A program made the translations under genes and the position numbers. DNA of 64,000 nucleotides. Origin: Escherichia phage vB_EcoM_ESCO50. The notes beneath the pieces were generated by a model, which was not told where the DNA came from, did no database searches, and was given only the letters and a program-made list of their open reading frames with translations. The first letter of the stretch is position 1, and every line of letters begins with the position of its first letter. This document shows positions 1-43,679 of this stretch, piece after piece. Location of the stretch: the sequence record OM386664.1; one strand, given 5' to 3'.

Positions 1-952
1 AACAGTTGATACATAGGCTTTACAGAATCTTAACAGATGATTAACAAGAGCTAACAAGTTAATTTTTAAGGGTTATTTTGTTAAGATAATTAACAAGTTC
101 CTAACAAGTGTTTAACCTTTTTAACAAACTATTAACATGGTCACTACTCTTTTCTTATCATTCCCTTTCCTTTCTTAGTGACACCTTAAAAATGCCTTTT
201 AAAAGCTCTCTATAGCTCTCTATAGGCTCTTTTTAGTCTCTCCCTAGTATTTACCCCTCAAATGTATGAATAGCTCTTTATAGTGCTTTACAGTGCTTTT
301 AAGGCTATGCCAAAGGCTCTTACAAGGCTTTTACATGGCTTTAACAGAGATTTAACAAGGTGCTAACAAGTTGCTAACAAGCATAACTATGTAGGGGTTG
401 TTAATGGATTGTTAAAAAGATGTTAAAGGGGCTAGCATTTACGTAACTTTTACGTAACTTCAAAGTAACTTTATAGCCCCTTTTACGTAACTTTATAGCC
501 CCTATAACATACTTTTTAGTGACTATCAAGCCCTTTTTAGTAGTTCACGAGATACTAGTCAGCCTATAAGCTTATACCCTTAAAAGTTTCTTTTAAGGCT
601 CTGTAAAGCCTTATAAAGGGCTTTTTAAGGTTAGTTAATGCAATCCCTTAAGTTATATTGATAATGCTGTTATAGAGCGTTATAGAGCGTTATAGAGCGT
701 TATAGAGCGTTTAAAGGTTTGCCCTTCCCTCTCGGGCTATGGGCTTGTATTTAAGTTGATTTGATAAAAGGCTATAGGGTAGACTATAGAGTTATTGCTT
801 TTTAAGGTATGAGATAAACTCTATCGAATCAGTGGGAGATTCTGGAAAGGTGAGGAAAGGGATTGCATAAGGATTTGATAGACGTAAAAAAGCCCCATTT
901 AAGGGGCTATATAAAGGTGTCTGGGGCTATTTAGCCCCGCTGCATTGACAAC
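1..952. repeat. Repeat-rich non-coding region with several families of short direct repeats (TAACAAG >=7 copies, TTACGTAACTT x4, GTTATAGAGC x4 in tandem near 669-708, CTCTATAG pairs); iteron-like, candidate origin, genome end or protein-binding array
   Basis: No ORF >=60 aa in any frame; repeats read directly from sequence. Confidence 0.6.
885..908 (-). terminator. Rho-independent terminator on minus strand (stem AGCCCC/GGGGCT, followed by U-run), 3' of gene 953-1483; a second hairpin GGGGCT-ATTT-AGCCCC lies at ~923-938
   Basis: Inverted repeat with adjacent A-run on plus strand (U-run on minus transcript). Confidence 0.5.
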
Positions 953-1483
953 TTACAGATTTTTGATTGTATCATCGATATCTTTTTCAATATCTTTTAA
1001 AGTTTTTTCTAAATTCTTGATATTGAAAGATAAGCCCTCTCCCAATGTCTTAGAATAACCTTCAGGGCGTAAATCGTACAGGTTAATTTTTTCCACTTCA
1101 AAGAGACTAACCAGCTCACCGCTTACATTGTAAGCCATTGAAACAGTATTTACAGGGGCTTTATAAAACTTGTTCAATGACTTGATTGAACGCTCATAAG
1201 TCATTTTATAACTGTTTAACAGGTTTTTAACGTGATTGTAAATGTTTTTACACTCATCTAAGTAAATCTCTAAGAATAACGGTAATAATTTTGCGACAGC
1301 TTGCATAAAATGAGAGACTACAACGGTTGCAACATTACGACGATGGACATAATAAGCCCCTTTTCCTGATTTAGTGATAGTTGCAAAATGTACACCATTG
1401 CAGCGAAATTCATATGTATCTTTTACAGGTTTAGACATTACAGCATTTGAACGAATATAGTTGATAGCTTGAAATTTGTTCAT
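953..1483 (-). CDS. Hypothetical early protein (176 aa)
   Basis: ORF with GGAGA RBS ~8 nt upstream of ATG; own promoter/hairpin cassette upstream; no recognisable motif. Confidence 0.5.
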   Translation of the reverse strand: MNKFQAINYIRSNAVMSKPVKDTYEFRCNGVHFATITKSGKGAYYVHRRNVATVVVSHFMQAVAKLLPLFLEIYLDECKNIYNHVKNLLNSYKMTYERSIKSLNKFYKAPVNTVSMAYNVSGELVSLFEVEKINLYDLRPEGYSKTLGEGLSFNIKNLEKTLKDIEKDIDDTIKNL

Positions 1484-1704
1484 TTTTAGAATCTCCAGTT
1501 TAGGACTTTATTTAGTGGGGAGGTCATCCCTCCCCGTTGGTTAGTAATTTACTTGGTTTGATATCTGATTGCAAGCATTTTTTTAAGTTTATCTATAAAG
1601 AAATCTTTTAAGTGAATCCCTTTTAGATAAGCCCCCTCGAACAATATTATCAATGTCAAGAGGGATTGTCAACACTTTTTTAAAAGTTTTTTGTAAGTTA
1701 TTGA
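1484..1704 (-). promoter_or_regulatory. Type A cassette: sigma70-like promoter (TTGCAA-N17-TAAATT, ~1546-1574) followed by GC-rich 5' hairpin GGGGAGG..CCTCCCC (~1517-1535) and GGAGA RBS
   Basis: Conserved repeated intergenic sequence; hexamers and 17-nt spacing read on minus strand. Confidence 0.55.
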
Positions 1705-2046
1705 TTAGCTTATAAATATTTTTTCAGGTTTTACATAGCTGATACGCTGATTTTTTAGCAAGTCATTCCAGATTAGCGCGGCAATATGAGAATAACCGGA
1801 TTCACGTAAAATTTTCATTGTTTTCCTTCTCGTTTCAAATCTGGTTGCATAGTACTCACTATTTAAAACCGTTTTATTGCCTTCACTGTCCACATGGATA
1901 ATCTGCATTACTTGGAAGGGGCTTACATCCTCGCCTTTATTCCATTGTTCAAAGTATTTTAGGCACTGCATAGGTGACATCTTGTCACTTACTTGAGTTG
2001 ACCAAGATGAATCCTCTTTATCAGTGACTACGGTTACATAAGCCAT
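1705..2046 (-). CDS. Hypothetical early protein (113 aa)
   Basis: ORF preceded by type A cassette and RBS. Confidence 0.5.
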   Translation of the reverse strand: MAYVTVVTDKEDSSWSTQVSDKMSPMQCLKYFEQWNKGEDVSPFQVMQIIHVDSEGNKTVLNSEYYATRFETRRKTMKILRESGYSHIAALIWNDLLKNQRISYVKPEKIFIS

Positions 2047-2138
2047 ATTTTGAATCTCCTAGTTTAAGGACTTTACTTAGTGGGGAAGGTCATTCCCTCC
2101 CCGTTGATTGATAATTTATAGATTTTTATCTGGCTTGT
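2047..2138 (-). promoter_or_regulatory. Type A cassette (hairpin GGGGAGGGAATGACCTTCCCC with one G-U pair, TAAATT -10-like element, weaker -35) plus RBS
   Basis: Near-identical copy of the 1484-1560 repeat. Confidence 0.5.
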
Positions 2139-2372
2139 CTAGTCTTTTTTAATGATGATTTCATCTTGCCCGTCAACACTGTCGAAATAGATTCCATCGT
2201 CATCTTCTGTTTTAAAGTAACATTTAATGTCATCACTGGCGGGGTAGTCTTGTCTTGCTATCTGGCAAACCTGAATAGCATTTTCTTTACTCCCTGTAAA
2301 CTCCTCAAGCCCTTTAAAATCGCATGAATACCCATTACAGGTGGAAAGGATGAGATAAACGGTTATAAGCAT
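2139..2372 (-). CDS. Hypothetical small acidic protein (77 aa), hydrophobic N-terminus
   Basis: ORF; acidic C-terminal half. Confidence 0.45.
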   Translation of the reverse strand: MLITVYLILSTCNGYSCDFKGLEEFTGSKENAIQVCQIARQDYPASDDIKCYFKTEDDDGIYFDSVDGQDEIIIKKD

Positions 2373-2438
2373 GATTAAAGCCCTCTAAAAGCCCCTACAA
2401 GGGGCTGAATAGTGTTTATAAGGTGATTGTATAGGTTA

Positions 2439-2981
2439 TTAGAAAAAGCTCTTCAAATCTCTTTCTACAATGTTTTCTGTCAGTGCGTCCATGATGTCAC
2501 AAAAAACCTGAATACTATCCACCTGTTGAACACTTTTAGCAAGAAATTCTAAAGGCTCCTCAATATAGTTTAAATTCGGATTATCCAACGAAGGGAGACA
2601 AAAAGGCGAGTACATCGCATTAAACTCGGTTACGTAAACCTTTTTAATCCAATTCAAATCGAAATATTCTGTAAAACTTGCCACGCTCGACATATTATCG
2701 CAAGAGAAATCATCGTTTAATTCATCCTCTGGAATATCAAGTTCTAAGATAACAATATTTTGAGTTTTCATTTGAAAGGCCGCTGATATAGTGGCATTTC
2801 CTAGCGCTTGTTGAATTCCTTCCGATGTTATCTCTTGCTCATCGTCGCCATAGATTTTATTTTCTGGGTACACGTAAAAATTGCCGTCCATGTCCGAACA
2901 ATTCCATGCACCTGATGGCTTGTCGCCGTTATTAATCAGGTTGAGGAAATTTTCTTGAGTAGTACCGTGAAAACATTTCAT
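2439..2981 (-). CDS. Hypothetical protein (180 aa), acidic
   Basis: ORF preceded by type B cassette. Confidence 0.5.
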   Translation of the reverse strand: MKCFHGTTQENFLNLINNGDKPSGAWNCSDMDGNFYVYPENKIYGDDEQEITSEGIQQALGNATISAAFQMKTQNIVILELDIPEDELNDDFSCDNMSSVASFTEYFDLNWIKKVYVTEFNAMYSPFCLPSLDNPNLNYIEEPLEFLAKSVQQVDSIQVFCDIMDALTENIVERDLKSFF

Positions 2982-3073
2982 TTTAGAATCTCCAGTTTAG
3001 GATTTAGCGGTAAAGCTCTTTATCTGGGGCTTACTATATCGAACTGTAAGCCCCTTGTAAAGTACTTTATCAA
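2982..3073 (-). promoter_or_regulatory. Type B cassette: promoter TTTACA-N17-TATAGT with the spacer and -10 embedded in hairpin GGGGCTTAC...GTAAGCCCC, then RBS
   Basis: Conserved repeat; one stem position changed with a compensating change relative to other copies. Confidence 0.55.
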
Positions 3074-3271
3074 TTATTTTTTGACAACTTTTAAAACGGC
3101 AAGATAACCTAAACAATATGAATCACCGAAGAGAGTCCGGCCCATAAATGAATCCTCTTTAATATCCTTTGCAGTGACGGTTTTTTCTACGCCGTGGGAG
3201 AGGACTACATCGCCAACTTTAATGTCTTTGATATGTGTAGTTTCAATGTTTAAACCGTTAATAATAGCCAT
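3074..3271 (-). CDS. Hypothetical small protein (65 aa)
   Basis: ORF between two cassettes. Confidence 0.4.
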   Translation of the reverse strand: MAIINGLNIETTHIKDIKVGDVVLSHGVEKTVTAKDIKEDSFMGRTLFGDSYCLGYLAVLKVVKK

Positions 3272-3377
3272 TTTTAGAATCTCCAGTTTAGGACTTTATT
3301 TAGTGTGGGAGGTCATTCCCTCCCCGTTGATGTGTAATTTAGTCTATCTAAAAACCAGTGTCAACAATTTTTTTTTT
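3272..3377 (-). promoter_or_regulatory. Type A cassette: TTGACA (~3359-3364) N17 TAAATT (~3336-3341), 5' hairpin ~3307-3325, RBS
   Basis: Read on minus strand; consensus -35 and 17-nt spacer. Confidence 0.6.
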
Positions 3378-3782
3378 TTAAAGTTCTGTATAAATTGCGT
3401 CGCAGATATCACGAAAGTCGTGATTTGACAAATTACGCTGCAACCAAGTAGCGAAAAAATCAGCGATTGCAAAATTCGCGCCATACTCGACGGATAACCA
3501 TACTTTCACGGCGAATCTGAATATTTTTAAATCAAGTTCTTTATTCATTACCTTAGATTTGCCCAACATGTCAGCCATTTCATATTGTGCGCCGTCTAGC
3601 GTGATACCCGCTGCAACGTCAATCAGTGAGGTTTTTACGCTTTCAACGTCTAAGATAACACTCTGAATCTTCCCAATAATATTATATAAGGTTTCATCTG
3701 GCGCTGCTGATGTCAGAGCATTAATCCGGTTAACGGTCAAACGTGCTTTTAAGATTAATAACTCACGGTTATTAATAGTCAT
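3378..3782 (-). CDS. Hypothetical protein (134 aa)
   Basis: ORF with cassette upstream. Confidence 0.5.
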   Translation of the reverse strand: MTINNRELLILKARLTVNRINALTSAAPDETLYNIIGKIQSVILDVESVKTSLIDVAAGITLDGAQYEMADMLGKSKVMNKELDLKIFRFAVKVWLSVEYGANFAIADFFATWLQRNLSNHDFRDICDAIYTEL

Positions 3783-3867
3783 TTTAGAATCTCCAATTTA
3801 GGATTTAGCGGTAAAGCTCTTTATCTGGGGCTTACTATATCGAACTATAAGCCCCTTGTAAAGTACT
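3783..3867 (-). promoter_or_regulatory. Type B cassette (TTTACA-N17-TATAGT overlapping hairpin GGGGCTTA...TAAGCCCC)
   Basis: Repeat copy. Confidence 0.55.
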
Positions 3868-4140
3868 TTATACTAAATGCAGCTTTTTGCCTTTTACCAT
3901 GATGTAACTTGATGCGCTATTGCTATATACATCCTGATAAATTCTGCGCAAACGTCCTTTATAGTGAACTTTCCAGCTCGTTGGTATCTTTTTCCCATAT
4001 CCGGTAGCAGTTTTTTGAAGTCCAGCAATTTGCCAATCCAAAATATGTTGTTCCGCTTGTAAATCCTCAAAATTCATCACGCCGTCTACATAGTGGCGTA
4101 GAGTGACATTTAGAGTACGGCCATTGTTAGTAGTATACAT
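3868..4140 (-). CDS. Hypothetical protein (90 aa)
   Basis: ORF with cassette upstream. Confidence 0.5.
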   Translation of the reverse strand: MYTTNNGRTLNVTLRHYVDGVMNFEDLQAEQHILDWQIAGLQKTATGYGKKIPTSWKVHYKGRLRRIYQDVYSNSASSYIMVKGKKLHLV

Positions 4141-4235
4141 TTTTTGAATCTCCTAGTTTAAGGACTTTACTTAGTGGGGAAGGTCATTCCCTCCCCGTTG
4201 ATGTGTAATTTAATATATCTAAAAATCAGTGTCAA
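4141..4235 (-). promoter_or_regulatory. Type A cassette: TTGACA (~4230-4235, overlapping stop of upstream gene) N17 TAAATT (~4207-4212), 5' hairpin, RBS
   Basis: Repeat copy with consensus -35. Confidence 0.6.
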
Positions 4236-4564
4236 CTGTTTTGTTTTCGTTTGCTCATTTCTTGAGCAATTACAGCGTAGTAGTCTTTTAAGTCACTGAT
4301 ATTCAAAGCATTTATCAGAGAGTTATAATCATCGACTAACTGAAAATCATCTTTAAAGATATCGCTGATTTGATAGGTTTTTGCTTTAAATCTAAAGCTC
4401 ATCTCTAGCCGTTTTATTTGCTCATCGCTTAAACGCTCTAAAAAGCTCTCTACGAGGTTATTGCTAACCTGTTGTGTGATTGCCTTATCTGCTAAATTAT
4501 AGGCGCTGTAAGCCTTATAAAGTGCTATAATGGCGATGATTGCAGTAATTCCCATCATTAACAT
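4232..4564 (-). CDS. Hypothetical membrane protein (110 aa; N-terminal hydrophobic helix)
   Basis: ORF; N-terminus MLMMGITAIIAIIALYKAY is hydrophobic. Confidence 0.5.
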   Translation of the reverse strand: MLMMGITAIIAIIALYKAYSAYNLADKAITQQVSNNLVESFLERLSDEQIKRLEMSFRFKAKTYQISDIFKDDFQLVDDYNSLINALNISDLKDYYAVIAQEMSKRKQNS

Positions 4565-4580
4565 GATGTTTCCTCTTAAT

Positions 4581-5093
4581 TTAATTTTTAAAGATATTCA
4601 GCACCGAATCTTTTAATGATTCCAAGCGTTCTAATACTTCAGATTCTGCGCCTGAATTGCTCACCTCCTCTTTTAGTCTATCCTCTAAATCAACGCCGTC
4701 GCTATAGCACCAATCGAAAGCGTAACCAATAGAAAAACTATCTAAAACCGTTTTTCCGTTTGCGTCTACAACTTTTGCAGATAGGTAATACTCTGAAGCC
4801 TCTAAATCCCTTTTTAGCTCTTCCTGTAAGCTTATGTAAGCCTCACGGGATGGATTTTTCCGGCCTTGTTTTGCATAGTCGCTTGAGAGCTGTTTAAGGC
4901 TGTAATGTAAAGGGATTGCATATTTAAATTCATTGCGTTGATAGTTAGGATTTTTAATAGTCGCACCGCCTTGATGGTCATCTGTAAACTCCCAATTTTC
5001 AAGGGCATGACTTGGTTCATACCAAGTAACAGCCTCATAAATGATTGAGAATTTTTCTTTTACAACTTCAAAGGTAGCGTCTATAGTTTTCAT
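4581..5093 (-). CDS. Hypothetical protein (170 aa)
   Basis: ORF closely following upstream gene. Confidence 0.5.
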   Translation of the reverse strand: MKTIDATFEVVKEKFSIIYEAVTWYEPSHALENWEFTDDHQGGATIKNPNYQRNEFKYAIPLHYSLKQLSSDYAKQGRKNPSREAYISLQEELKRDLEASEYYLSAKVVDANGKTVLDSFSIGYAFDWCYSDGVDLEDRLKEEVSNSGAESEVLERLESLKDSVLNIFKN

Positions 5094-5177
5094 TTTAGAA
5101 TCTCCAGTTTAGGTTTAGTGATAAAGCTCTTTATCTGGGGCTTACTATATCGAACTATAAGCCCCTTGTAAAGTACT
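5094..5177 (-). promoter_or_regulatory. Type B cassette
   Basis: Repeat copy. Confidence 0.55.
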
Positions 5178-5561
5178 TTATTTGTTAATTTTGAAGATAG
5201 TTACATAGCCATCGCTCCCGATGATTTGAGATACTCCAGCTTTTTCTACTGAATAGCCCATATTCTCAAGATGATAAACAGCGTCATCATAACCATATGC
5301 GCCGCCCTGATAGCGTCTCTTATTGCATTTTATCAGGTTTTTACCACGTCCAGCAAGTGCATTTAGTACGGCTTTTTCACTTGAAAGCGTACCGTCTAAC
5401 ATTGTTGCCGTGTAATGATTGATTTTATTCCCGTTGATATCATACTTGAAATTAAACGAGTGAACAACAATTATTTTATCGTTAAATTTTTCATCAAGCG
5501 CCTTCTCTAATACATTACGGAAATTTTCTTTATTGATGAATTTAGGTGCACGATATGTCAT
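5178..5561 (-). CDS. Hypothetical protein (127 aa)
   Basis: ORF with cassette upstream. Confidence 0.5.
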   Translation of the reverse strand: MTYRAPKFINKENFRNVLEKALDEKFNDKIIVVHSFNFKYDINGNKINHYTATMLDGTLSSEKAVLNALAGRGKNLIKCNKRRYQGGAYGYDDAVYHLENMGYSVEKAGVSQIIGSDGYVTIFKINK

Positions 5562-5649
5562 TTTTAAGTTCTCCAGTTTAGGTTTAGTGATAAAGCTCTT
5601 TATCTGGGGCTTACTATATCGAACTATAAGCCCCTTGTAAAGTACTTTA
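5562..5649 (-). promoter_or_regulatory. Type B cassette
   Basis: Repeat copy. Confidence 0.55.
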
Positions 5650-5856
5650 TTAGATTTCGTAGTAGTAAACTGCTGTCTGTCTTATGTGCTTTCTTGTTAC
5701 TCTTGTAAGATAGCAATTAGAGTCTATAGCCGTTTCTACATAATTGCAATAATCAGACTCTGAAATTCTGGACCATGCACCGCAAATTTGCATGTAAAAA
5801 CGCTTTACATTTGTGTTAACGTTAGTTGTGACCATCAATTCACGACCGTATAGCAT
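5650..5856 (-). CDS. Hypothetical small protein (68 aa)
   Basis: ORF with cassette upstream. Confidence 0.4.
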   Translation of the reverse strand: MLYGRELMVTTNVNTNVKRFYMQICGAWSRISESDYCNYVETAIDSNCYLTRVTRKHIRQTAVYYYEI

Positions 5857-6368
5857 TTTTAGATTCTCCTAGTTTAAGGCTATTGGGCTTGTTTGCCTGT
5901 CTGATGAAAATACTAAATGACCATATCCAGAGAGTCAATAAAAAATTTTAAAAATATTTTCAGGAATTGCCAGAGAGGAACGGGTGCGCGCGAATACCAC
6001 AAAACAGAACACAAATCAAGAATTATTTTTCAATCCGCTACAAATTTTTCTGTTGACTTTTCTTTTTGGATGTGGTAGCCTTGTGAGAAATGGCGACATC
6101 CCCGCCTAGACCCGCTTACCTGCACAATTCTAAAATGATTTTTCTTGCCCGACCTGATTTTTCTCTGCACGTTTTGAAAATGAAAAAGCTCTTTGGAGAT
6201 TACCTGCACAGTTTGAAAATGAATTTTCTCTTTGGAGTTCAAAATTTTCTCTACAGATTTCTCTATAGAAATATACCTGCACAATTCTGAAATGAAAAAG
6301 CCCTCCTTACCTGAAAAATTTACCAGATAAGAAAGGCTTAGTCTATTGTGAATATTCTACAGAGTTTC
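5857..6368. repeat. Non-coding island with ~4 direct copies of CTGCAC(A/G)(A/T)TT(C/T)TGAAAATGA (~6115-6295) plus CTTTGGAG(A/T)T repeats and a GC-rich patch; candidate regulatory array
   Basis: Repeats read from sequence; track ORFs here (6030-6284, 6090-6290) only translate the repeats. Confidence 0.5.
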
Positions 6369-7154
6369 TTAGCTCTTTGCGTCTAAGAAGGTAACTTCTG
6401 GTGAAGAGAAGATTGCCTCGATATCCTCATCAGTTCTTGCATAAATGTAAGCATCGGCATCACTACCAAATGTCACAGCAATTCTGTGATTGCTCTTCGA
6501 CAGGTGGGTAACTAGAGCGTTACTTAGAGACATCTTTTCAACCGGAGGGTTACTTTGATGTATCTTACCTTTTCTTCGTCTGAAGAGGGTAACTGCGTTA
6601 TCTGTGAACACAACTACACCTGCAAAGTATTCTGGTTCACAGTAGTTTTTCCAACCTGAGTGTAACTCGTTGTACATCTCTGTCTCGTAGACATACAGAT
6701 AAACATCTACACTCTTCATCACCTGATTGATGATAACTGTGACAGCTTGAGGGTCAAGTCCACCGATACCTGCACCAATCATAGGTAAACCAACTTTCTT
6801 CAACTGGTTAACTTCACAGTATCTGTTAAGTTGCTTCAAAGATGACTCTAAAGCACTGTATCGGGCGTCTTTACCAGTCTTAAGCTGAGTGTAAAGGTTA
6901 GCTATACGACCTTGTTTTAAACGTGCTACAGAGAAATTACCCAGTAAATTTTCACAGGGTTTGTGGCCTATACCACCTGCATAGAGGTAAACTTCTGTAT
7001 CGGTCTCATATGCTTTTGGGTAAAGTTTAGAAATCTTGTCAGCGATACCTGCACCCATTAAATTCATACAGTTGCAACCGTGACCAATGATGTCAAACTT
7101 ACCTTTATCAAAGGCGTCAAAGATATCACCATTGATGATTTTTACAATACCCAT
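6369..7154 (-). CDS. Macro-domain-like protein (ADP-ribose binding/processing) with ~100 aa C-terminal extension
   Basis: N-terminal GDIFDA...DIIGHGCNCMNLMGAGIA and later GLPMIGAGIGGLD resemble macro-domain glycine-rich loops; motif recognition only. Confidence 0.45.
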   Translation of the reverse strand: MGIVKIINGDIFDAFDKGKFDIIGHGCNCMNLMGAGIADKISKLYPKAYETDTEVYLYAGGIGHKPCENLLGNFSVARLKQGRIANLYTQLKTGKDARYSALESSLKQLNRYCEVNQLKKVGLPMIGAGIGGLDPQAVTVIINQVMKSVDVYLYVYETEMYNELHSGWKNYCEPEYFAGVVVFTDNAVTLFRRRKGKIHQSNPPVEKMSLSNALVTHLSKSNHRIAVTFGSDADAYIYARTDEDIEAIFSSPEVTFLDAKS

Positions 7155-7355
7155 TTAACATCTCTCCCAAGATTCTTTATCTTCTGAAGGCTTTACACGT
7201 TGCCCTTCGTGGTCTACCCAGATGCACCCACATCCTTCACAGATTACTGGCATTGCATAGCCAGCTTTGAAGTCATCTTCAGTGATAAGACCTTTTAAGT
7301 CACCTGTATCACGTCCAAACATTTCGATAGAACAGTCTTTGCAGAAGTCAGCCAT
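7155..7355 (-). CDS. Small zinc-ribbon protein (66 aa; CKDC...CEGCGC)
   Basis: Two Cys pairs; directly abuts the macro-domain gene. Confidence 0.45.
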   Translation of the reverse strand: MADFCKDCSIEMFGRDTGDLKGLITEDDFKAGYAMPVICEGCGCIWVDHEGQRVKPSEDKESWERC

Positions 7356-7367
7356 ATAATATACACC

Positions 7368-7595
7368 TTATAGTTCGGTTTCTCGTAACTCTTTACCTTC
7401 ATCATAGAAGCATTTATAGAATGTGTCTATAGAGATTCTGGCAAAGGTGAGGTCTTCAAAGTATTCCTCTGGAGTTGTCCCTGTAAAACTAAAACTATCG
7501 AGGCTGTAAAATGGTATCACTGTGTCGTGACTCACGAAAACACATGCTGACGTGACTTCTCCAGTATCTTTGTCAATTACCTCTAGAGCTTTCAT
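7368..7595 (-). CDS. Hypothetical acidic protein (75 aa)
   Basis: ORF. Confidence 0.4.
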   Translation of the reverse strand: MKALEVIDKDTGEVTSACVFVSHDTVIPFYSLDSFSFTGTTPEEYFEDLTFARISIDTFYKCFYDEGKELRETEL

Positions 7596-7896
7596 AGCTT
7601 ACCTTTTCGGTTAGTTCATATAAATCAACATGCTCAATGCTGTCAATGTTGATATCAATCTTTTTGAAACGTTCTATCACTTCGTTGGCAGTCATCCATA
7701 TCAGACACCAATGATTCTTGATGGATTCTTCAAGAAGGTCAACACAGTCTTTAAAGGTTTTTGTATCACTCCTTGTTCCGACTACTGCAATTGTCCCATA
7801 TAGCCACTTACCATTGTCATAAGATACTTGTGCTACACCAACCTCTTTATCTTTCTCGTAGTAAACGGCTACAAAGTCTCTTCCATTAATCTGCAT
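7573..7896 (-). CDS. Hypothetical protein (107 aa)
   Basis: ORF. Confidence 0.45.
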   Translation of the reverse strand: MQINGRDFVAVYYEKDKEVGVAQVSYDNGKWLYGTIAVVGTRSDTKTFKDCVDLLEESIKNHWCLIWMTANEVIERFKKIDINIDSIEHVDLYELTEKVSYESSRGN

Positions 7897-7898
7897 AG

Positions 7899-8168
7899 TT
7901 ACTTCCTCGTTTTAAGAACTGCTAAGATTTCTTTAGAGTCTGGTAAGAACCATGTGTAGTGATTTTCTTTGATTTCTGGATGAGTGTCAACCTTTATTTT
8001 GCACTCTTTACCAACATGCTTAAGCTGTGCTGTGACACCTTGCATAAAGATATGGCACATCACATTATCCATAATGGTTGGTGAGAAATCAATTCGCATA
8101 TAAGTTTCTTTTGGTCGTGGTAACAGTAAGTAACCCTCTACATAGAAAGTATCTTGATTCTCTGTCAT
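7899..8168 (-). CDS. Hypothetical protein (89 aa)
   Basis: ORF. Confidence 0.45.
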   Translation of the reverse strand: MTENQDTFYVEGYLLLPRPKETYMRIDFSPTIMDNVMCHIFMQGVTAQLKHVGKECKIKVDTHPEIKENHYTWFLPDSKEILAVLKTRK

Positions 8169-8434
8169 TGCTGCTTATTCCCTAATAAAATCATGTCAAT
8201 AAGGTTGTTAGCTTTGATTGTGCACTGGTAAAAGCCGTCACGATAGAACTCAAGTGCTGCTGCTACATCACTGCCTGTGTTACCTTTGATGATATACCGT
8301 GATTCTTCTTGAGTGTACTTATCACTCTCACTTACTTGGGAGTTTTTGAATGTACTGCTCACTTTGTTCGTTGAACACCCTGACATAGTTATCAGTAACA
8401 CAAACATTATAAAACTCTGGCTTAGTTTTTTCAT
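8165..8434 (-). CDS. Putative lipoprotein, possible outer-membrane spanin (Rz1-like), in a different frame overlapping the 3' end of the upstream gene
   Basis: Signal peptide with lipobox-like ITMSGC; ~107-nt out-of-frame overlap with 8328-8675. Confidence 0.4.
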   Translation of the reverse strand: MKKLSQSFIMFVLLITMSGCSTNKVSSTFKNSQVSESDKYTQEESRYIIKGNTGSDVAAALEFYRDGFYQCTIKANNLIDMILLGNKQQ

Positions 8435-8675
8435 ATGTTAGTACCTCTTTTGTATGCTTATTCTTAGCAAGCACATCTTTCAAATCATTTTTGTAATTGG
8501 TGCTCAGTGTGGCTAACCCTTCCTGATAAGCATCTTTAGCAACACTTATGAGCTTCTGATTGTTTAGCTCAGCTTCAGCAACTTGATAGTCTCTGTAAGA
8601 GTATCCTCCCCAGACACCTGCCCCAACTAAGAAAACAATTATGAAAGTGGCTTGACAGAACTCTTTAAATGTCAT
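8328..8675 (-). CDS. Putative inner-membrane spanin (Rz-like): N-terminal TM helix plus coiled-coil region
   Basis: TM segment FIIVFLVGAGVWGGY, charged helical remainder; overlapping lipoprotein ORF. Confidence 0.4.
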   Translation of the reverse strand: MTFKEFCQATFIIVFLVGAGVWGGYSYRDYQVAEAELNNQKLISVAKDAYQEGLATLSTNYKNDLKDVLAKNKHTKEVLTYEKTKPEFYNVCVTDNYVRVFNEQSEQYIQKLPSK

Positions 8676-8694
8676 TTAACAATCTCCTGAAATG

Positions 8695-8715
8695 AAAAAG
8701 GCTCCCGAAGGAGCC
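8695..8715 (-). terminator. Hairpin GGCUCC-UUCG-GGAGCC followed by U-run on minus transcript, immediately upstream of RBS of gene 8328-8675
   Basis: Inverted repeat with UUCG tetraloop and U-tract. Confidence 0.5.
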
Positions 8716-8727
8716 TGTATCTTAACC

Positions 8728-9192
8728 TTAACCGAGGACTTTAGCAAGGATATTCGCAGCCATCGAAGAGGCTTTTGCAGCAGCAACTACGCCAGCTTTG
8801 ATAGCACTATCCTTGATAGCAGATACCGTTGCAGCATCAGTAAAGAGATAAGTAGTTGTTTTAGAACCACTTGTAAAGGAAAGCATAAGAGCAGTTTCCA
8901 GATTGAAAGAGCGATACGGAGCACCTTCTTTAACGATACCTTCAGCACCTAACTCTGAAGCCATACCCATATCATAGATAGTCATCAGGTTTTCTTTGTG
9001 TGCAGTCGTTGAACCAGCACCTTTGACGTGTTTCTTAACATTCAGAAGAGCACGATACTCCCGGATGTTACCGTCTGCTTTTACATTGACAGCACGGAAG
9101 ATTTTACCTTCAAAGTTGCTCTTGATAATGTTACGAACTACTTCAGATTTGTTTGCTGTAACGTCCAGTGCTACCGTAATGATACTGTTCAT
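8728..9192 (-). CDS. Hypothetical protein (154 aa)
   Basis: ORF. Confidence 0.5.
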   Translation of the reverse strand: MNSIITVALDVTANKSEVVRNIIKSNFEGKIFRAVNVKADGNIREYRALLNVKKHVKGAGSTTAHKENLMTIYDMGMASELGAEGIVKEGAPYRSFNLETALMLSFTSGSKTTTYLFTDAATVSAIKDSAIKAGVVAAAKASSMAANILAKVLG

Positions 9193-9201
9193 AAGTTTCT
9201 C

Positions 9202-9897
9202 TCAATGTTTAACTAACATGGTTTTAATGTGTGGAAGGATTCTGTTTACCTTCTGCACATTCTTCTCTGTATCTTCTATAAAACATACTATATTAAAGTA
9301 AGGCAGAATGCAAGACTGAATCATCCTCACTTTCAAACTTTCTGCACTTATAGAGTTAGCCCCAAAACCACGCATAAAAAGCATGTAGTCATGCTCTATG
9401 TAATGCCTTAAAAACATCTCAGTAGGTATTCTCTGAGATTCACCCCTCGCTGTCAAGAGTCCAATGGCAGCATGGTTGGCAATTGCATCAATAATATTGA
9501 AAACATACGTTGGTTTTGCACTTACAGAGTCAAGCAAATTAGTGTACTGTGAAAATGAACCATCAATCAGTTCCGTTGAGCAATCTTCGTGATTAAAATT
9601 TGTAAGAACACCATCAATATCTGCTAAGATGAGGTTACCTTTTTCTACAAGGTCTTTATTGACTATGACTAAACTGTCACGTCTTACACCTATAGATTGC
9701 CCCGTCTCTTTATCCACAACGTTCACAATCGGTTCTGAAGTGTGGAACTCTTCAAGTGAACATACAACTTCTCTTGCAGTGTCTTCAAAATCCCTACACT
9801 GTTCTGGAGTCCATACACCGGAATCAAGACCTAACTCATGAGGGTGTAAGTCATAAGCATGACACAGTACTTCATCAGACTTTCTTAATTTTTTCAT
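9202..9897 (-). CDS. HAD-superfamily phosphatase-like protein
   Basis: Motif I ILADIDGVLT (DxDG), motif II LLTAR. Confidence 0.45.
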   Translation of the reverse strand: MKKLRKSDEVLCHAYDLHPHELGLDSGVWTPEQCRDFEDTAREVVCSLEEFHTSEPIVNVVDKETGQSIGVRRDSLVIVNKDLVEKGNLILADIDGVLTNFNHEDCSTELIDGSFSQYTNLLDSVSAKPTYVFNIIDAIANHAAIGLLTARGESQRIPTEMFLRHYIEHDYMLFMRGFGANSISAESLKVRMIQSCILPYFNIVCFIEDTEKNVQKVNRILPHIKTMLVKH

Positions 9898-10423
9898 GGT
9901 TTACCTTAGAAATGTTTGTTGCAAATTCACATTGAGCAATAACTTTCATGTTGTTATAGACATCTTGAGAATATTTCTTAGCTTTAGGGATTCTGTACGA
10001 ATACCCAGCATTATATGATGCTAAAACTTTTTGTAAAGTCTTCTTTGACTTTGGATGACCATGTACCTTTGTCCAAAACTCAAGCTCTTTGTGAGTTTCC
10101 TTCGCAGCATAATCAAAGTCTCTTAAGAGTTTCTTTTTAGCCACATTAGGACTAATTTTGTTACGCTTTACAACAGTCTTCAAGTGATTCTGGAAAATAC
10201 CATAATCGTGTGTCTTTTTATTCTCTACCTTCAGACCTAACTCTGACTCTTGTAAGGCTATAGCAGCTAGAGTGATACCCCAACCTTTACCCATGTTATT
10301 CTCACCATACTGGTAAGCTTTTAACATGTTTACTTTTTGACTAATTGATAGCTCTGGGCAGTCAACTGCATAAGATAAGTGTGCTATAAACATTAAGCAC
10401 AAACCTAGAATCAATTTCTTCAT
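9875..10423 (-). CDS. Secreted lytic transglycosylase (SLT domain) with N-terminal signal peptide
   Basis: Signal peptide MKKLILGLCLMFIAHLSYA; SLT motifs ALQESELG, YGIFQ, AYNAG. Confidence 0.65.
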   Translation of the reverse strand: MKKLILGLCLMFIAHLSYAVDCPELSISQKVNMLKAYQYGENNMGKGWGITLAAIALQESELGLKVENKKTHDYGIFQNHLKTVVKRNKISPNVAKKKLLRDFDYAAKETHKELEFWTKVHGHPKSKKTLQKVLASYNAGYSYRIPKAKKYSQDVYNNMKVIAQCEFATNISKVNHEKIKKV

Positions 10424-10483
10424 TGGTTCCCCTGTTTAGTTTATCGTAACAACAATTATACAGCACTCTGCACAAAATACAAA

Positions 10484-10510
10484 TAAAAAAGGCCGCCGAA
10501 GCAGCCTTTT
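10484..10510 (-). terminator. Rho-independent terminator (GGCUGC-UUCG-GCGGCC plus U-run) between lytic transglycosylase and rIIB-like gene
   Basis: Inverted repeat flanked by A-run and T-run. Confidence 0.5.
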
Positions 10511-10523
10511 AAGAAATTACTTA

Positions 10524-11633
10524 TTAGATTTCACGTTTACGTTGAGAGATAAGTTCACCAGCAGTGCCAACGATGACATGCAAAGCTTCAGTCTTACCAT
10601 CCCATGCTTTCAGCACTTTACGTTGATTATCAACGATTGCTGCAACTTCATAACGAGAGGAACGCATCTTCATATCGTTGTAATCAGTTGGAACAGATAC
10701 AACATCTCGTGGATGGACACGAACCTTCAGGATGGTATCACCTGAGAAGCAACGAACATAATCCCAAGCACCAACATGAAGACCTTGAGAGCAAGTTACG
10801 TTACGGTTGTTATCAACCATCCAACGTGGCATCTCTACAATGTTACCCAAATCATTAGGTACTCTGTAGGTGTGGGAGTCAACCAGCTTGCCTTCACGAG
10901 TAGATACTTTCTTCCAACCAATGATGTAGCCTTCTTCATCAATTTCAACATCAAGGTGAGATACAAAGCCCCAAAGTTGTTCTACAGAGTCTTTAGATGG
11001 GTTTTCCATCAGTTTTTCGAAGAACATCACAAGGCGTTCAAAACCTTTATCTCCAGTCTTCATCATGTGAAGAATACGGTCAACCAGAGTAGAACGCATC
11101 TCAACAGCACCGTAGAATAGCTTGTCGCCTTTGATTGTGATAGCACCCTGAGTGAAGTTTTCGATAGACTTACGAATGTTCATCAGTTCAAATGCTTTCT
11201 TGAACTCACCCTTCACAACATGAACTACAATCTCTTGATAGTTTGGATGAGTAGACTCAACAATTTCAGATTCTGAACCATAAGTCATAATTACAGAATC
11301 ACCAGTAATCATGTACTCAATATTGTCATCTTTCTGCATAGCTTCATGCAGTTTATTTACCGGAGCTTTCTGTACAGGCTCTTTAACAGCCTTTTTAACT
11401 GGCTTATCAGCTTTCTTTTTAAAGGTCTTAGCAACTTGCTTTAAAGTCTTCGTAGCTGGTGTAGAAGTTGCCTTTTTATTCCCTTTTAAGGTTGCTTCAT
11501 GACGCTCTACAGCACGACCGACTGAACGGGTTGATGTGTTAAATTTCTGTGCAATAGCTGTTTTAGTCAGCTCGCCCTCTTTAACCAGTTTGTAAATTTC
11601 TGCGTCAATCTGTGCTTTAGTTTTAGTAGTCAT
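10524..11633 (-). CDS. Possible rIIB-like protein (369 aa); N-terminal HTH-like segment, Lys/Ala/Pro-rich linker
   Basis: Sits immediately downstream of the rIIA-like gene; assignment rests on position, not on recognised motifs. Confidence 0.3.
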   Translation of the reverse strand: MTTKTKAQIDAEIYKLVKEGELTKTAIAQKFNTSTRSVGRAVERHEATLKGNKKATSTPATKTLKQVAKTFKKKADKPVKKAVKEPVQKAPVNKLHEAMQKDDNIEYMITGDSVIMTYGSESEIVESTHPNYQEIVVHVVKGEFKKAFELMNIRKSIENFTQGAITIKGDKLFYGAVEMRSTLVDRILHMMKTGDKGFERLVMFFEKLMENPSKDSVEQLWGFVSHLDVEIDEEGYIIGWKKVSTREGKLVDSHTYRVPNDLGNIVEMPRWMVDNNRNVTCSQGLHVGAWDYVRCFSGDTILKVRVHPRDVVSVPTDYNDMKMRSSRYEVAAIVDNQRKVLKAWDGKTEALHVIVGTAGELISQRKREI

Positions 11634-11678
11634 CTTATTACTCTCTCTTTTTTAATTAATAAATCATTTTGTGAGGCT

Positions 11679-11708
11679 ATTCTAAGGGGCTTCAAAGCCC
11701 CTTGTCAA
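11679..11708 (-). promoter_or_regulatory. Sigma70-like promoter TTGACA-N18-TAGAAT with hairpin AGGGGCT..AGCCCCT in the spacer
   Basis: Hexamers read on minus strand upstream of 10524-11633. Confidence 0.5.
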
Positions 11709-11713
11709 GAACC

Positions 11714-14080
11714 TTAATCGTAAACTGTTGTACCTTCTGGAACACATTTCACATTAAAGCCTAAAAACTTACTCACTTCAATAGGTGACACTTTATTCCA
11801 ATCTAAATGGGAAAGCAAGAAATTTTCTTGTTTTCTTTTTGAAAGGTAGTTTGTCACCTTAATAACCATACGGTCACCAGCTTTCCTGATTTTCTTGTAA
11901 AGCTTTGTGTTATTGTCAAGACACCCTTTCAGAGTTTGCAAGACACTAATAGTGTAAGTGTACGCAAACGGTGCAGCAACGTATTGGATTTTACCGAACA
12001 TTGCCTCTACAGCCTCTTCATTACCTTCTAGGAAGATAGTTTTGTTAGTATCTCGTGAATAGCAATAACCACGAGAAATCTTCCTGTTATTGAATGTAAA
12101 GTTTCTGGCAATAATCCAACTGCTTGTAAGGTCAAGAACACCATTCATGTAGATGCGTGTCATATACCTGTTATGATTAATCCAATGAACATCCGTTAAG
12201 CTGTCGTTCAAGAGCTTCTCATCTACTTCAATCCAGTCTTCTGGTATCTTTTTCCAATTTGCTTTTCGGAAAACATAGACTGTCTTACCTGTAACATTAG
12301 CAACTGACTTAGCTACATCCTCTGGAGATGAGCAAAAACATCTACCATCAACTGTGTCACCTACTGCCTTAATATAAAGCTGAGGCTCTTCAATTGTGTC
12401 TAAGTCTTCTGACACCTCTTTGTATGAAGCTTTAGTTTCTGCTGGAACAGCTTTCCAGAGTTTTACAACACCTCTTACAGCTTCTTTACGCTGATAGTGA
12501 TGTTCCTTATCAGACATCTTCACAATCTTTAACAAGCTTTTATCAAGTTTGTGCAGATTGATTAAGTCATCTAGCTCTTTCTCTGTAGAGAATACAAAGA
12601 CAATACCATTGTATCTGTGAAACAGATTTGACTCACTGGCGTAGTCTCGACATGCACCACGCAAAATTTGATTGCGTCCTACAGTCTTCTCAGTACCGTT
12701 TTTATTGCGACGGTCATTAATCACGAACAAAAACTGTTCAATTTGGCTTTTACGCATTGCACCAAAGATATTGAACATGCTTGCCTCTTGAGTGTAGGAA
12801 AGTGCTGTTACACGAATCTTACTCTCTAAAGAGTTGAACTTGACATAAGCAACTGGGTCATAAAGATAATCTACTTTAGGGATATTGTTCCCGTTCCTAT
12901 CAACCTTAATATTGCCTTTACCATCACGTTCATAAATGACTGAGCCGTCTTCTGCGTAGATAATTCCACGACGAATGTTTAACAATTCTTCTTCCAGAGA
13001 ATCAAGCTTAACGCCTCCCCACTCTAGCTTTGGACACACAGCATTAAACATCTCTCGTGAGTTCAAACGTAACTCTGCATAAGCCTGTGCAGCATCCATG
13101 AGTGTAGGTTGGCTATTAACTTTCTTGATAACATCCTTTGTAATTGCTTCAGTTATCTTTTTGGTAGCCTCGATGATAACATTTTTTGTCGTATCATTCA
13201 TCTGCAATGCTTCACGAGAAGCTGCTATAGCAACTGAACCAATAGGCATGTAGATGTTTACAAGGTCTACGCTCCTACGGAAAAACTCTGGCAAGACTTT
13301 GAAGAAATCATCACCAAGTAATGCTTCCATGTTCACTGGATAGGCAATATTACCCATCACCACATTAAACTCTAGCCTATTACCACTAGAACGCCAGCTT
13401 TGCTTATGAATCATGGCATCATAAACACCTTCTTCACGGGCAATGACGTTCATATCTGCTAATACATCGTCGTACTCAATATTACTTTCTGGTTTTACAG
13501 CAAAGTATGAGTACACATTTCCAGCTTCTTCAAAGAACTTTGAGATACGGTGGTCAGCAACTGCCACACGTACAGCTAAACCATTAGGTTCTTTTGTTGG
13601 GTTAGTGGTCAGCTTAGTTACTTGAGGGATACCATTCTCAAGATAAACAGAGTACTTATTAACAACACCATCAACATAGCTAGATACTGTGAATGACTGA
13701 GCAATTGCAAATGGAGATTTTGAGCCGATACCCATTGCACCAATGTAGTCATTAGAGTCATTCTTCGTAGAAGCCCCGTAGTTTAGGTACAAACTCATAA
13801 CTTTATCATGAGTCAATCCAGTTCCAAAATCACGAACTTCAAAGTAAGGCTCAAAACGAGTAGGTAAATGCACATGGAACGGGATATTCTCTTTTCCAGC
13901 TTCTTTCTGAGCATCTACTGCATTGCATGACAGTTCACGAATCACTGCCCTTTCTTTAAATGTGTATACACCAGAACTCAGAAGGCTGAACATTTCAGGT
14001 GTCATTGTAATCTGTGCTTGAGATGTCTCCAAAGAAGTTGAACTCTTAATCACTTCTGCGTGGTCATTTACCATGCGCAT
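11714..14080 (-). CDS. rIIA: rIIA-like protein with N-terminal GHKL (Bergerat-fold) ATPase domain
   Basis: N-box ELSCNAVDA, G1 DFGTG, G2 GAMGIGSKS; 788 aa, comparable to T4 rIIA. Confidence 0.55.
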   Translation of the reverse strand: MRMVNDHAEVIKSSTSLETSQAQITMTPEMFSLLSSGVYTFKERAVIRELSCNAVDAQKEAGKENIPFHVHLPTRFEPYFEVRDFGTGLTHDKVMSLYLNYGASTKNDSNDYIGAMGIGSKSPFAIAQSFTVSSYVDGVVNKYSVYLENGIPQVTKLTTNPTKEPNGLAVRVAVADHRISKFFEEAGNVYSYFAVKPESNIEYDDVLADMNVIAREEGVYDAMIHKQSWRSSGNRLEFNVVMGNIAYPVNMEALLGDDFFKVLPEFFRRSVDLVNIYMPIGSVAIAASREALQMNDTTKNVIIEATKKITEAITKDVIKKVNSQPTLMDAAQAYAELRLNSREMFNAVCPKLEWGGVKLDSLEEELLNIRRGIIYAEDGSVIYERDGKGNIKVDRNGNNIPKVDYLYDPVAYVKFNSLESKIRVTALSYTQEASMFNIFGAMRKSQIEQFLFVINDRRNKNGTEKTVGRNQILRGACRDYASESNLFHRYNGIVFVFSTEKELDDLINLHKLDKSLLKIVKMSDKEHHYQRKEAVRGVVKLWKAVPAETKASYKEVSEDLDTIEEPQLYIKAVGDTVDGRCFCSSPEDVAKSVANVTGKTVYVFRKANWKKIPEDWIEVDEKLLNDSLTDVHWINHNRYMTRIYMNGVLDLTSSWIIARNFTFNNRKISRGYCYSRDTNKTIFLEGNEEAVEAMFGKIQYVAAPFAYTYTISVLQTLKGCLDNNTKLYKKIRKAGDRMVIKVTNYLSKRKQENFLLSHLDWNKVSPIEVSKFLGFNVKCVPEGTTVYD

Positions 14081-36768: not shown

Positions 36769-37025
36769 GTAAGCCTCTTTTAAGTAACTATTAAGTTTTA
36801 ATCTTTTATCTTAACGTATTCTATACGTTATACTTTAAAGCTTTTTAAAAACTATTAAATAGTCTTTTAAGAGTTTTAAAGTATCTGTATAGTTAAACTG
36901 TTAAGTAACCTTTTAAGTAAAAACCCACTTCGCAAAGATTAACACCTTGTCAAGTACATTGTCAACTTGCTTTTTATAATTTTTTACAGTAATGTATGAG
37001 ATTAATGATTTAAGAGGGAGTAAAA
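36769..37025. promoter_or_regulatory. AT-rich divergent intergenic region with TTAAGTAA(C) direct repeats and TTGTCAA elements between minus-strand genes and the DNA polymerase
   Basis: Strand switch here; repeats and promoter-like elements read from sequence. Confidence 0.45.
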
Positions 37026-43574: not shown

Positions 43575-43679
43575 CTTTTAGTAAGGCATGGCTAGGTGAG
43601 GTCTGGTAGGGTAGGGTGAGGTGGGGTTGGGTTGGGTTTGGTATGGAAGGATGGCAGTAGCCTTATAAAAAATCTGCCA
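43575..43679 (+). other. G-rich 5-nt-periodic element C (includes GGGGTTGGGTTGGGTTTGG) ending in hairpin GGCAG-TAGCCTTATAAAAAATC-TGCC
   Basis: Third copy; conserved leader and loop, compensatory stem. Confidence 0.5.

Follow-up and report, generated by a model that had tools for sequence, protein, structure and literature searches.

What occupies half a kilobase of gene-free DNA in a tightly packed phage genome? The question was raised by a stretch of 64,000 nt from Escherichia phage vB_EcoM_ESCO50 (sequence record OM386664.1), hereafter the window, in which positions 5857–6368 form a gap of 512 nt between the stop codon of a macro-domain/O-acetyl-ADP-ribose deacetylase gene (the macro gene) and the start codon of a gene for a 68-aa protein. 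Because the flanking genes end and start exactly at the gap, and the minus strand carries every gene around it, this is a true intergenic island. A preliminary description, made from the letters alone, had noted repeats in it and proposed a regulatory switch region, a cluster of phage-specific promoters or a small-RNA locus. Our analysis points, with a probability of about 0.7, to a DNA-level array of binding sites for sequence-specific proteins inside a composite boundary element. The closest relative of the region was found in Escherichia phage vB_EcoM_ESCO56 (99.4% identity), and many Felix O1-like phages (Ounavirinae, Felixounavirus) were 88–93% identical to it.

The island contains four direct copies of a 28-nt unit

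Four direct copies of TACCTGCACAnTTnTGAAAATGA(W5)GC were present in one orientation, starting on the plus strand at 6119 (R4), 6164 (R3), 6203 (R2) and 6276 (R1), with spacings of 45, 39 and 73 nt. Allowing up to three mismatches, the 64 kb contained no match outside of these copies, and four motif matches were reached in 0 of 100 shuffles. The four-copy array noted in the preliminary description is thus real and far beyond chance. Its consensus held as a motif, with the 21-nt version proving slightly too narrow: the conserved unit extends over ~28 nt, TACCTGCAC R nWT nnn RAAATGA W5 GC, and includes an A5/T5 tract and, read as RNA, AAAUGA in every copy. The genome-wide motif search it had called for gave no copies elsewhere in the 64 kb and none upstream of other genes. 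A weight matrix was also built from 52 distinct unit variants in the window and related phages. The window copies scored 36–40 bits, a value owed partly to construction as the matrix includes these four; no other site in the 64 kb exceeded 15.6 bits.

Smaller repeats accompany the units. The interleaved repeats mentioned in the preliminary description correspond to CTTTGGAG, which occurs twice (6191–6198 and 6230–6237) as the 3′ flanks of R3 and R2. A second short motif, GAAANNTNTGTAGMGRA, has two occurrences, both in the island and on the minus strand (6034–6050 and 6247–6263). Along the direction of the genes (minus), the parts of the island follow one another as terminator, R1, spacer, R2, R3, R4, G/C-rich patch, 85-nt segment, AT-rich tract, promoter and leader (coordinates in Table 1).

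The array is conserved throughout the Ounavirinae

The island was detected in 289 phage records by blastn and the macro gene in 295 by tblastn, and the two were linked throughout the Ounavirinae. The island was kept where the macro protein had diverged to 41–43% identity (Kolesnikvirus) or 36.5% identity (“Listeria phage” LPML1, a deeper branch of the Ounavirinae); more distant macro-domain loci in two unrelated phages had no island. Felixounavirus and SUSP2 carry four copies at the spacing seen in the window, and in the Moogle-like phages of Citrobacter and Shigella the spacing is 45/41/75. R2 is missing in Si3, BPS17L1, phiWec172 and ECML-1, which have three copies and a different terminator stem. 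Kolesnikvirus phages (Erwinia, Hafnia) have four nearly tandem copies of ATGCACAAATTSAAAATGA, spaced by 39/37/37 nt, and LPML1 has four 48-nt units ending in GTGCTTATAA, with a spacing of 55/43/53. LPML1 (OK283618.1) and “Campylobacter phage A132” (MG065664.1; 89% identical to the window) are both Felix O1-like Ounavirinae with the island, and their stated hosts look doubtful.

Selection was measured as mean pairwise identity in an alignment of 23 felixounaviruses. Within the macro gene, identity was 0.75 at third codon positions and 0.89 at codon positions 1 and 2. The cores of R3 and R4 reached 0.987 and 0.979, the 85-nt segment at 5975–6059 had 0.94, and is thereby conserved above codon positions 1 and 2 of the macro gene, and R1 and the terminator both had 0.91. 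The copies also hold their individual identity across genera. R4 is the counterpart of the Kolesnikvirus unit U2, with which it shares the flank AAAATGATTTTTCTTGCC[C/A]GACCT; R3 corresponds to U3, both containing TGCACG; and R1 corresponds to U4, both abutting the terminator. This copy-specific identity suggests an ordered assembly of sites and not interchangeable copies or decaying duplications. The array is under strong purifying selection, with each copy having its own identity. In being real and selected, the element bears out the earlier view of non-coding DNA that marks where two gene blocks meet.

Identity in the island was lowest, at 0.69, in the G/C-rich patch (6060–6118). The preliminary description had pointed out a GC-rich patch, which we recovered as GGCGACATCCCCGCCTAGACCCGC at 6092–6115, within a block of 51% GC compared to 39% for the window. 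This form of the patch, the A-type, was found in about half of the felixounaviruses examined. At the same position, the remaining felixounaviruses, SUSP2 and the Moogle-like phages have a B-type patch whose plus strand carries a canonical G-quadruplex (G4) motif, either GGGGAGAGGGGGAGTAAGAGGGGGAGAGGGG or GGGAGGAAGGGGAGTAAGAGGGGATGGTGGGG; in Kolesnikvirus the sequence is GGTAGAGGGGAGGGTGGGCG. The G-runs of the A-type lie on the opposite strand from those of the B-type. Since there is just one canonical G4 motif in the 64-kb window (43609–43636, plus strand, GGGTAGGGTGAGGTGGGGTTGGGTTGGG), the recurrence of such motifs at the patch site in relatives is not due to chance.

The island is neither coding nor a structured RNA

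Two open reading frames (ORFs) lie over the array, one of 84 aa on the minus strand and one of 66 aa on the plus strand. Both translate the repeats, in agreement with the preliminary description, and neither is a conserved gene. The plus-strand ORF (6090–6290), MATSPP...YLHNSKMIFLARP..., might be taken for a small repeat protein, possibly made from a leaderless mRNA: the plus frame across R4, R3 and R2 is open for 46–102 codons in nearly all phages examined, a marginal PHROG match was obtained (E 0.0014), and such ORFs are annotated in some records. A conserved gene over the repeats was nevertheless rejected. Start (an ATG in A-type phages only) and stop codons shift, no ribosome-binding site is present, and in Moogle-like phages, Kolesnikvirus, LPML1 and wV8 the units are spaced by distances not divisible by three. 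Moreover, differences in patch and spacers amount to blocks of non-synonymous change. In existing records the island is either unannotated or covered by inconsistent hypothetical ORFs, annotators of related phages having picked different ones on both strands. A small protein is accordingly a most improbable explanation.

As for RNA, Rfam gave no match for the island even at E-values up to 10, and no tRNA was found. Folding of the plus strand gave a z-score of −0.6 relative to shuffles, that of the minus strand −2.5, owed to the terminator hairpin alone, and that of the putative Kolesnikvirus transcript −0.77. It is the sequence that is conserved, not a structure, and the island is neither coding nor a structured RNA. 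For this phage, the small-RNA locus considered in the preliminary description was thus not supported, the only promoter candidate for it being weak.

A cluster of phage-specific promoters fared no better. The motif occurs nowhere else in the window and is thus not a phage promoter class, and its copies are poor sigma-70 matches: a sigma-70 scan gave one 9/12 match overlapping a copy on each strand, and 14 promoter-like matches in the region as compared to 7.6 in shuffles (standard deviation 2.6, a difference of ~2.5 standard deviations). A variant is that each unit holds a weak coding-strand promoter, with a TTTTCA-like −35 and a TAnnnT −10 element, the core being where a phage factor would bind to redirect RNA polymerase. 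The −10-like hexamers TATATT in R1, TAATCT in R2 and TAAGCG in R4, the 9/12 match TTTTCA-17-TATATT over R1, and the LPML1 units ending in TATAAT, TATAAG and TATAAA speak for such tandem promoters. R3 has no −10-like hexamer, however, and the hexamer spacing varies by lineage, so that with the motif limited to the island we hold them to be very unlikely. Even taken together, tandem promoters, a small protein and neutral debris are improbable.

A copy of host DNA was rejected as well, as a blastn search of 5,426 E. coli genomes and 72,556 plasmids gave no array like it. Scanning viral and genome collections for the pattern TGCACAANTNNAAAATGA gave mostly single chance matches. The exception was an Ignavibacteria metagenome-assembled genome (CAVVVP010000010.1; locus L267, 1290–1439) with a tandem array of 4.7 copies of the 32-nt AGCCGATTGACCCCTTGCACAAATGGAAAATG, upstream of which no phage part is claimed here but downstream of which lies a prophage-like cluster that includes a Mu Gam-like gene. 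Its core is closely like the Ounavirinae unit, a likeness that is partly by construction because the array was found through the pattern scan.

Probable protein binding and a possible replication origin

The regulatory switch region of the preliminary description is too vague a reading; the data favor an array that binds protein at the DNA level. We infer that the units are bound by protein, and propose that the island is a composite cis-acting DNA element common to the whole subfamily Ounavirinae. Each unit would be the site for one sequence-specific DNA-binding protein, encoded by the phage early on or by the host, and binding would build up a nucleoprotein complex with a fixed order, as suggested by the copies keeping their own flanks across genera. 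Among the possible roles of such an array, an origin-type site for starting phage DNA replication was rated the most likely, yet it is speculative and we put it forward tentatively. Replication would start at the island, aided by transcription from the adjacent promoters, in the manner of iteron origins and of the T7 primary origin with its promoter and AT-rich tract.

Several features make an origin conceivable. A-tract iterons lie beside an AT-rich tract and strong promoters, together with an R-loop-prone G patch, and the phages have T7-type replication proteins, Felix O1 encoding a T7-type primase-helicase (PMC3185647). In Kolesnikvirus, the unit core (C/T)TATGCACA is one mismatch from the DnaA-box consensus (consensus according to 10.1101/866236), and a conserved antisense promoter, TTGACC-18-TATACT, points inward. 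The array has at least three direct repeats in the same orientation that are unique in the window, with 3–4 copies in all related genera, as expected of iterons. Iteron origins such as lambda ori, P1 oriR, plasmid iterons and T4 oriE likewise have 3–5 same-orientation direct repeats of ~20 bp with A-tracts, and the likeness to them and to T7 extends to the array being unique, intergenic and beside an AT-rich tract and active promoters. The T7 primary origin, too, sits just past the early region. In contrast to classical iterons, the spacing of the array (37–75 bp) is longer and less regular.

Other observations weigh against an origin. No cognate initiator gene was recognized next to the array; the ten proteins neighboring the island, considered also as candidate binders of the units, had no Pfam domain and matched only PHROGs of unknown function. 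Nor is the island the AT-richest site, as the AT-richest 80–200-bp stretch lies at ~36,790–37,000 (up to 82% A+T). This stretch at ~36.8 kb coincides with the cumulative GC skew minimum and a switch in gene orientation and is at least an equal candidate for an origin or for a divergent promoter hub. GC skew follows gene orientation and is uninformative for the island. In addition, the antisense promoter is strong in Kolesnikvirus only; LPML1 lacks it, and B-type felixounaviruses have a poor version. A-type and B-type patches do not have their G-runs on the same strand, at odds with a single R-loop model, and the core of the window units, ACCTGCACA, matches the DnaA box TTWTNCACA at only 6/9 positions. 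The literature searched gave no binding or replication data for these phages.

The island lies 6–7 kb from one physical genome end

A terminal repeat had looked plausible for the island, because contigs and the KhF1 record break there and Erwinia phage BoyaciRG1 has it at both record ends. Four IMG/VR metagenomic contigs end in the island, among which L006 runs into the Nextera adapter CTGTCTCTTATACACATC and L012 continues into GC-rich DNA of no relation. The KhF1 record (KT184313.1) was opened within the island, its ends overlapping by 377 nt at 89.7% identity, and in BoyaciRG1 (OR125561.1) an exact 1232-bp duplication at both record ends contains the whole island. As this duplication starts inside the macro gene, it is more likely an unresolved circular assembly overlap. 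The assembly breaks, which make the array a recurrent break point in metagenomes, are better explained by the presence of two patch haplotypes in mixed populations.

The physical ends of these genomes are found elsewhere. Phage Ro111lw has an exact 613-bp terminal repeat at both ends, assigned by PhageTerm (PMC6454146), and a 608-bp terminal repeat was shown experimentally for UAB_Phi87 (PMC4837284). The Ro111lw repeat aligns to window positions 432 to 13 and past the left edge, meaning that the window begins ~180 nt inside the terminal repeat. The macro gene of Ro111lw extends to 79,693 and is followed by the island (79,694–80,213), 13 small genes up to 85,873 and the terminal repeat (86,338–86,950). 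The array is thereby separated from the right physical end by ~7.1 kb (8.2% of the genome). The corresponding end would be located ~180 nt to the left of window position 1, ~6.3 kb from the array, and the early cassettes are transcribed toward it. With the repeat mapping to window positions 13–432 and the cut sites 6–7 kb away, the island was rejected as a genome end, terminal repeat or pac site. Terminase recognition arrays (lambda cosB R sites, P1 pac, SPP1 pacL/pacR) and terminal repeats resemble it in having short repeats in non-coding DNA of phages with defined ends; the difference is that the ~610-bp terminal repeat of these phages lies elsewhere and has its own, unrelated 10–11-nt repeats, and the island is remote from the cut sites.

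The terminal-repeat region itself (window 1–930) had appeared as a “first” non-coding island. It is rich in 10–11-nt periodic repeats, with units of GTTATAGAGC (four times at 669–718), TTAACAAG-type and GCTTTACA-type, which are unrelated to the array motif.

Alternative roles of the island

The layout could also be read in terms of transcription. As a transcriptional insulator, the island would stop transcription of the upstream operon from reaching the early-gene cassettes by combining a strong terminator, an untranslated and unstructured RNA, a C-rich patch (rut-like or forming a template-strand G4) and possibly roadblock proteins. Its location exactly between the operon end and the first of ~12 promoter-terminator cassettes fits this role, as does the well-conserved terminator, which is identical in sequence to the Felix O1 terminator t13, the most stable in the published list (−21.8 kcal/mol; PMC3185647 Table 2). 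The sense-strand patch reads CCCCTCTCCCCCTCTTACTCCCCCTCTCCCC in B-type, Susp-like and Moogle-like phages and is C-rich in Kolesnikvirus, but the A-type patch of the window is not C-rich on the sense strand. An insulator moreover leaves unexplained the 98% identity of the 28-bp unit in 3–4 copies with copy-specific flanks, the 85-bp core and the Kolesnikvirus antisense promoter, and the timing seen by reverse transcription PCR in Felix O1 gave no separation of the genes to either side of the island (PMC3185647). We therefore consider it rather unlikely, though less so than an antisense repeat RNA, in which a plus-strand transcript would pass through the patch and the four units to the terminator hairpin and, as a decoy or sponge, sequester a nuclease or RNA-binding protein, much as phage pseudo-ToxI repeats neutralize a type III toxin. 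For such an RNA, Kolesnikvirus offers a 10/12 sigma-70 promoter (TTGACC/G-18-TATACT) pointing antisense into patch and array, with hexamers conserved and a spacer that differs between lineages, one hairpin with a compensatory change (GCCGG..TCGGC to ACCGG..TCGGT), and nearly tandem units. Their spacing of 39/37/37 nt falls in the size range of type III antitoxin repeats. The A-type phages, the window included, have TTGACT-17-(TGn)TAGCCT at 6053–6081 (TTGACT 6053–6058, TAGCCT 6076–6081), which was below the threshold of the promoter scan; in these phages the hexamers are kept and the spacer is variable, and the B-type has TAAGAG at −10. A candidate transcript, predicted from these letters, would start near 6088–6090 and run through the array to the terminator hairpin, carrying AAAUGA in every unit. 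The resemblance to ToxI and pseudo-ToxI thus consists of ~37–45-nt A/U-rich AAAU units between a promoter and a terminator (in Kolesnikvirus) and of a lytic phage as carrier. It is countered by the irregular spacing in Felixounavirus, where the spacers are unlike and the repeats not exactly tandem, by the missing structure signal and Rfam ToxI match, by the absence of a toxin gene nearby and of a similar array in the E. coli genomes and plasmids searched, and by the terminator, which is poor when read in the plus direction as it lacks a T-run. No credible plus-strand promoter faces the array in B-type felixounaviruses, Moogle-like phages or LPML1, so that antisense transcription is not shared by every version of the island. 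We judge this RNA unlikely.

About equally doubtful is a checkpoint for DNA entry like the injection stop signal (iss) of T5. According to this explanation, the terminal 6–7 kb, with the small early genes that host RNA polymerase transcribes, would enter first. The repeats, bound by host or early phage proteins, would then make entry pause, and the rest would follow later. In its more specific form, a T5-kind entry stop in a contractile-tailed subfamily, a DnaA-like host protein or an early phage protein on the array would, together with the G4-prone patch, hold the genome at the envelope; we view this form with slightly more reserve still. The parallels are architectural. The T5 iss is annotated at 9140–10149 of 121,750 bp, that is 7.5–8.3% of the genome, close to the 8.2% found for Ro111lw. 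Both regions are large, untranslated and conserved above nearby ORFs, each bordering a terminal block of small early genes on its inner side, and both contain several short direct-repeat families in conserved order (for T5, 10.1101/866236). Both have a G-run patch, GGGAGGGTG in T5 and GGGGAGGGTGGG in Kolesnikvirus, and the iss, or untranslated Repeat Region 3 (Heusterspreute 1987; Davison, 10.1101/866236), shares DnaA-box-like elements with Kolesnikvirus, whose U3 sequence TTATGCACG is one base off TTATGCACA, a DnaA-box variant listed for T5-like iss regions (10.1101/866236). However, the island belongs to a myovirus and there is no sequence homology to the iss: our repeat matrix found nothing in it, the best match in T5 positions 1–12,000 (7.1 bits) lying outside the iss and within the shuffle range, and tblastn of T5 A1, A2 and dmp against the window gave nothing below E 0.5. 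The T5 iss is inside a 10-kb terminal repeat, whereas the repeat here has 608–613 bp and lies ~5.7–6 kb from the array. While the window units match the DnaA box poorly, the Kolesnikvirus sequences CTATGCACA or TTATGCACG match it at 8/9 positions, but as direct, unpaired elements and not as inverted-repeat modules. Two-step entry was not reported for Felix O1-like myoviruses in the literature searched, and the T5 stop mechanism is itself still a hypothesis. If an entry stop were true for the island, the ~7-kb cassette block would be a “first-step transfer” segment, and two-step delivery would be convergent and more general rather than a peculiarity of T5.

Relevance of the array

The array was not described in the literature searched, in which the Felix O1 paper (PMC3185647) lists other direct repeats and the terminator only; likewise, that literature yielded no transcriptome for any Felix O1-like phage, and the knockout data for Bas63 (PhageMaP paper) are at gene level only. 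The array is a subfamily-wide variant of the familiar “iteron-like repeat island”. It is located in the most strongly conserved non-coding DNA beside a highly mosaic region, and practically all members of the subfamily have it. Uses of Felix O1-like phages include Salmonella typing, diagnostics, biocontrol and therapy, and these phages are emerging as engineering chassis, Bas63 among them. Identifying the binder of the 28-bp units would give a handle on the replication origin, temporal control or DNA entry of these phages. It would also show genome engineers which 0.5 kb to leave undisturbed and allow spurious ORFs to be removed from ~290 records.

Other parts of the island and its surroundings

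The positions of the remaining parts of the island are given together with the repeat copies in Table 1. The terminator begins 30 nt past the macro stop codon, and its T-tail is the beginning of R1; it is annotated as a terminator in phage Tribble. The spacer element between R1 and R2 also adjoins the array in the distant phage LPML1. The AT-rich tract (5939–5965) was at the 99.8th percentile of 40-nt segments for A+T.

Table 1 Features in and around the island, listed by position in the window
Feature	Position	Strand	Details
68-aa gene	5650–5856	−	Start borders the gap
5′ untranslated leader	5857–5904	−	Ribosome-binding site (AGGAG) of the gene starting at 5856; small hairpin
AT-rich UP-like tract and first early sigma-70 promoter	5905–5974	−	TTGACT 5938–5933, 17 nt, TAGTAT 5915–5910; drives the 68-aa gene
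85-bp near-invariant core	5975–6059		Second-motif copy 6034–6050 (minus); invariant AAAAGTCAA
Candidate antisense sigma-70 promoter	6053–6081	+	TTGACT-17 nt-TAGCCT, TG at −15/−14; read from sequence
Variable G/C-rich patch	6060–6118		A-type
Repeat copy R4	6117–6144	+	TACCTGCACAATTCTAAAATGATTTTTC; 35.8 bits; flank CTTGCCCGACCTGA
Repeat copy R3	6162–6189	+	TCTCTGCACGTTTTGAAAATGAAAAAGC; 38.6 bits
Repeat copy R2	6201–6228	+	TACCTGCACAGTTTGAAAATGAATTTTC; 38.2 bits
Spacer element	6238–6269	−	TATAGAGAAATCTGTAGAGAAAATTTTGA; two 12-nt tandem units; second-motif copy 6247–6263
Repeat copy R1	6274–6301	+	TACCTGCACAATTCTGAAATGAAAAAGC; 40.4 bits
Intrinsic terminator of the macro-domain operon	6298–6339	−	17-bp stem, 8-nt loop, tail TTTCATTTCA
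Macro-domain/O-acetyl-ADP-ribose deacetylase gene	6369–7154	−	Stop borders the gap

Downstream of the 68-aa gene follows a row of small genes, each with its own promoter of the type TTTACA-17-TATAGT. This terminal block (window 432–5856; Ro111lw 80,214–85,873) consists of ~12 small genes annotated without function, with near-identical promoter/leader cassettes of the form TTTACA-17-TATAGT ... AAACTGGAGA. The gene that comes next after the island is not the same in different phages, and the region is thus strongly mosaic.

At window positions 10459–10510 (minus strand), the counterpart of the Felix O1 terminator t2 is followed by a sequence, TTTTTTATTTGTATTTTGTGCAGAG, that copies the repeat unit in part (12 bits). 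Here, GTGCAG lies in a promoter, within its spacer, and the TATAAT of this promoter is perfect. The terminators at 10459–10510, 8699–8716 and 6298–6339 have the T-tail CTTTTTCATTT in common.

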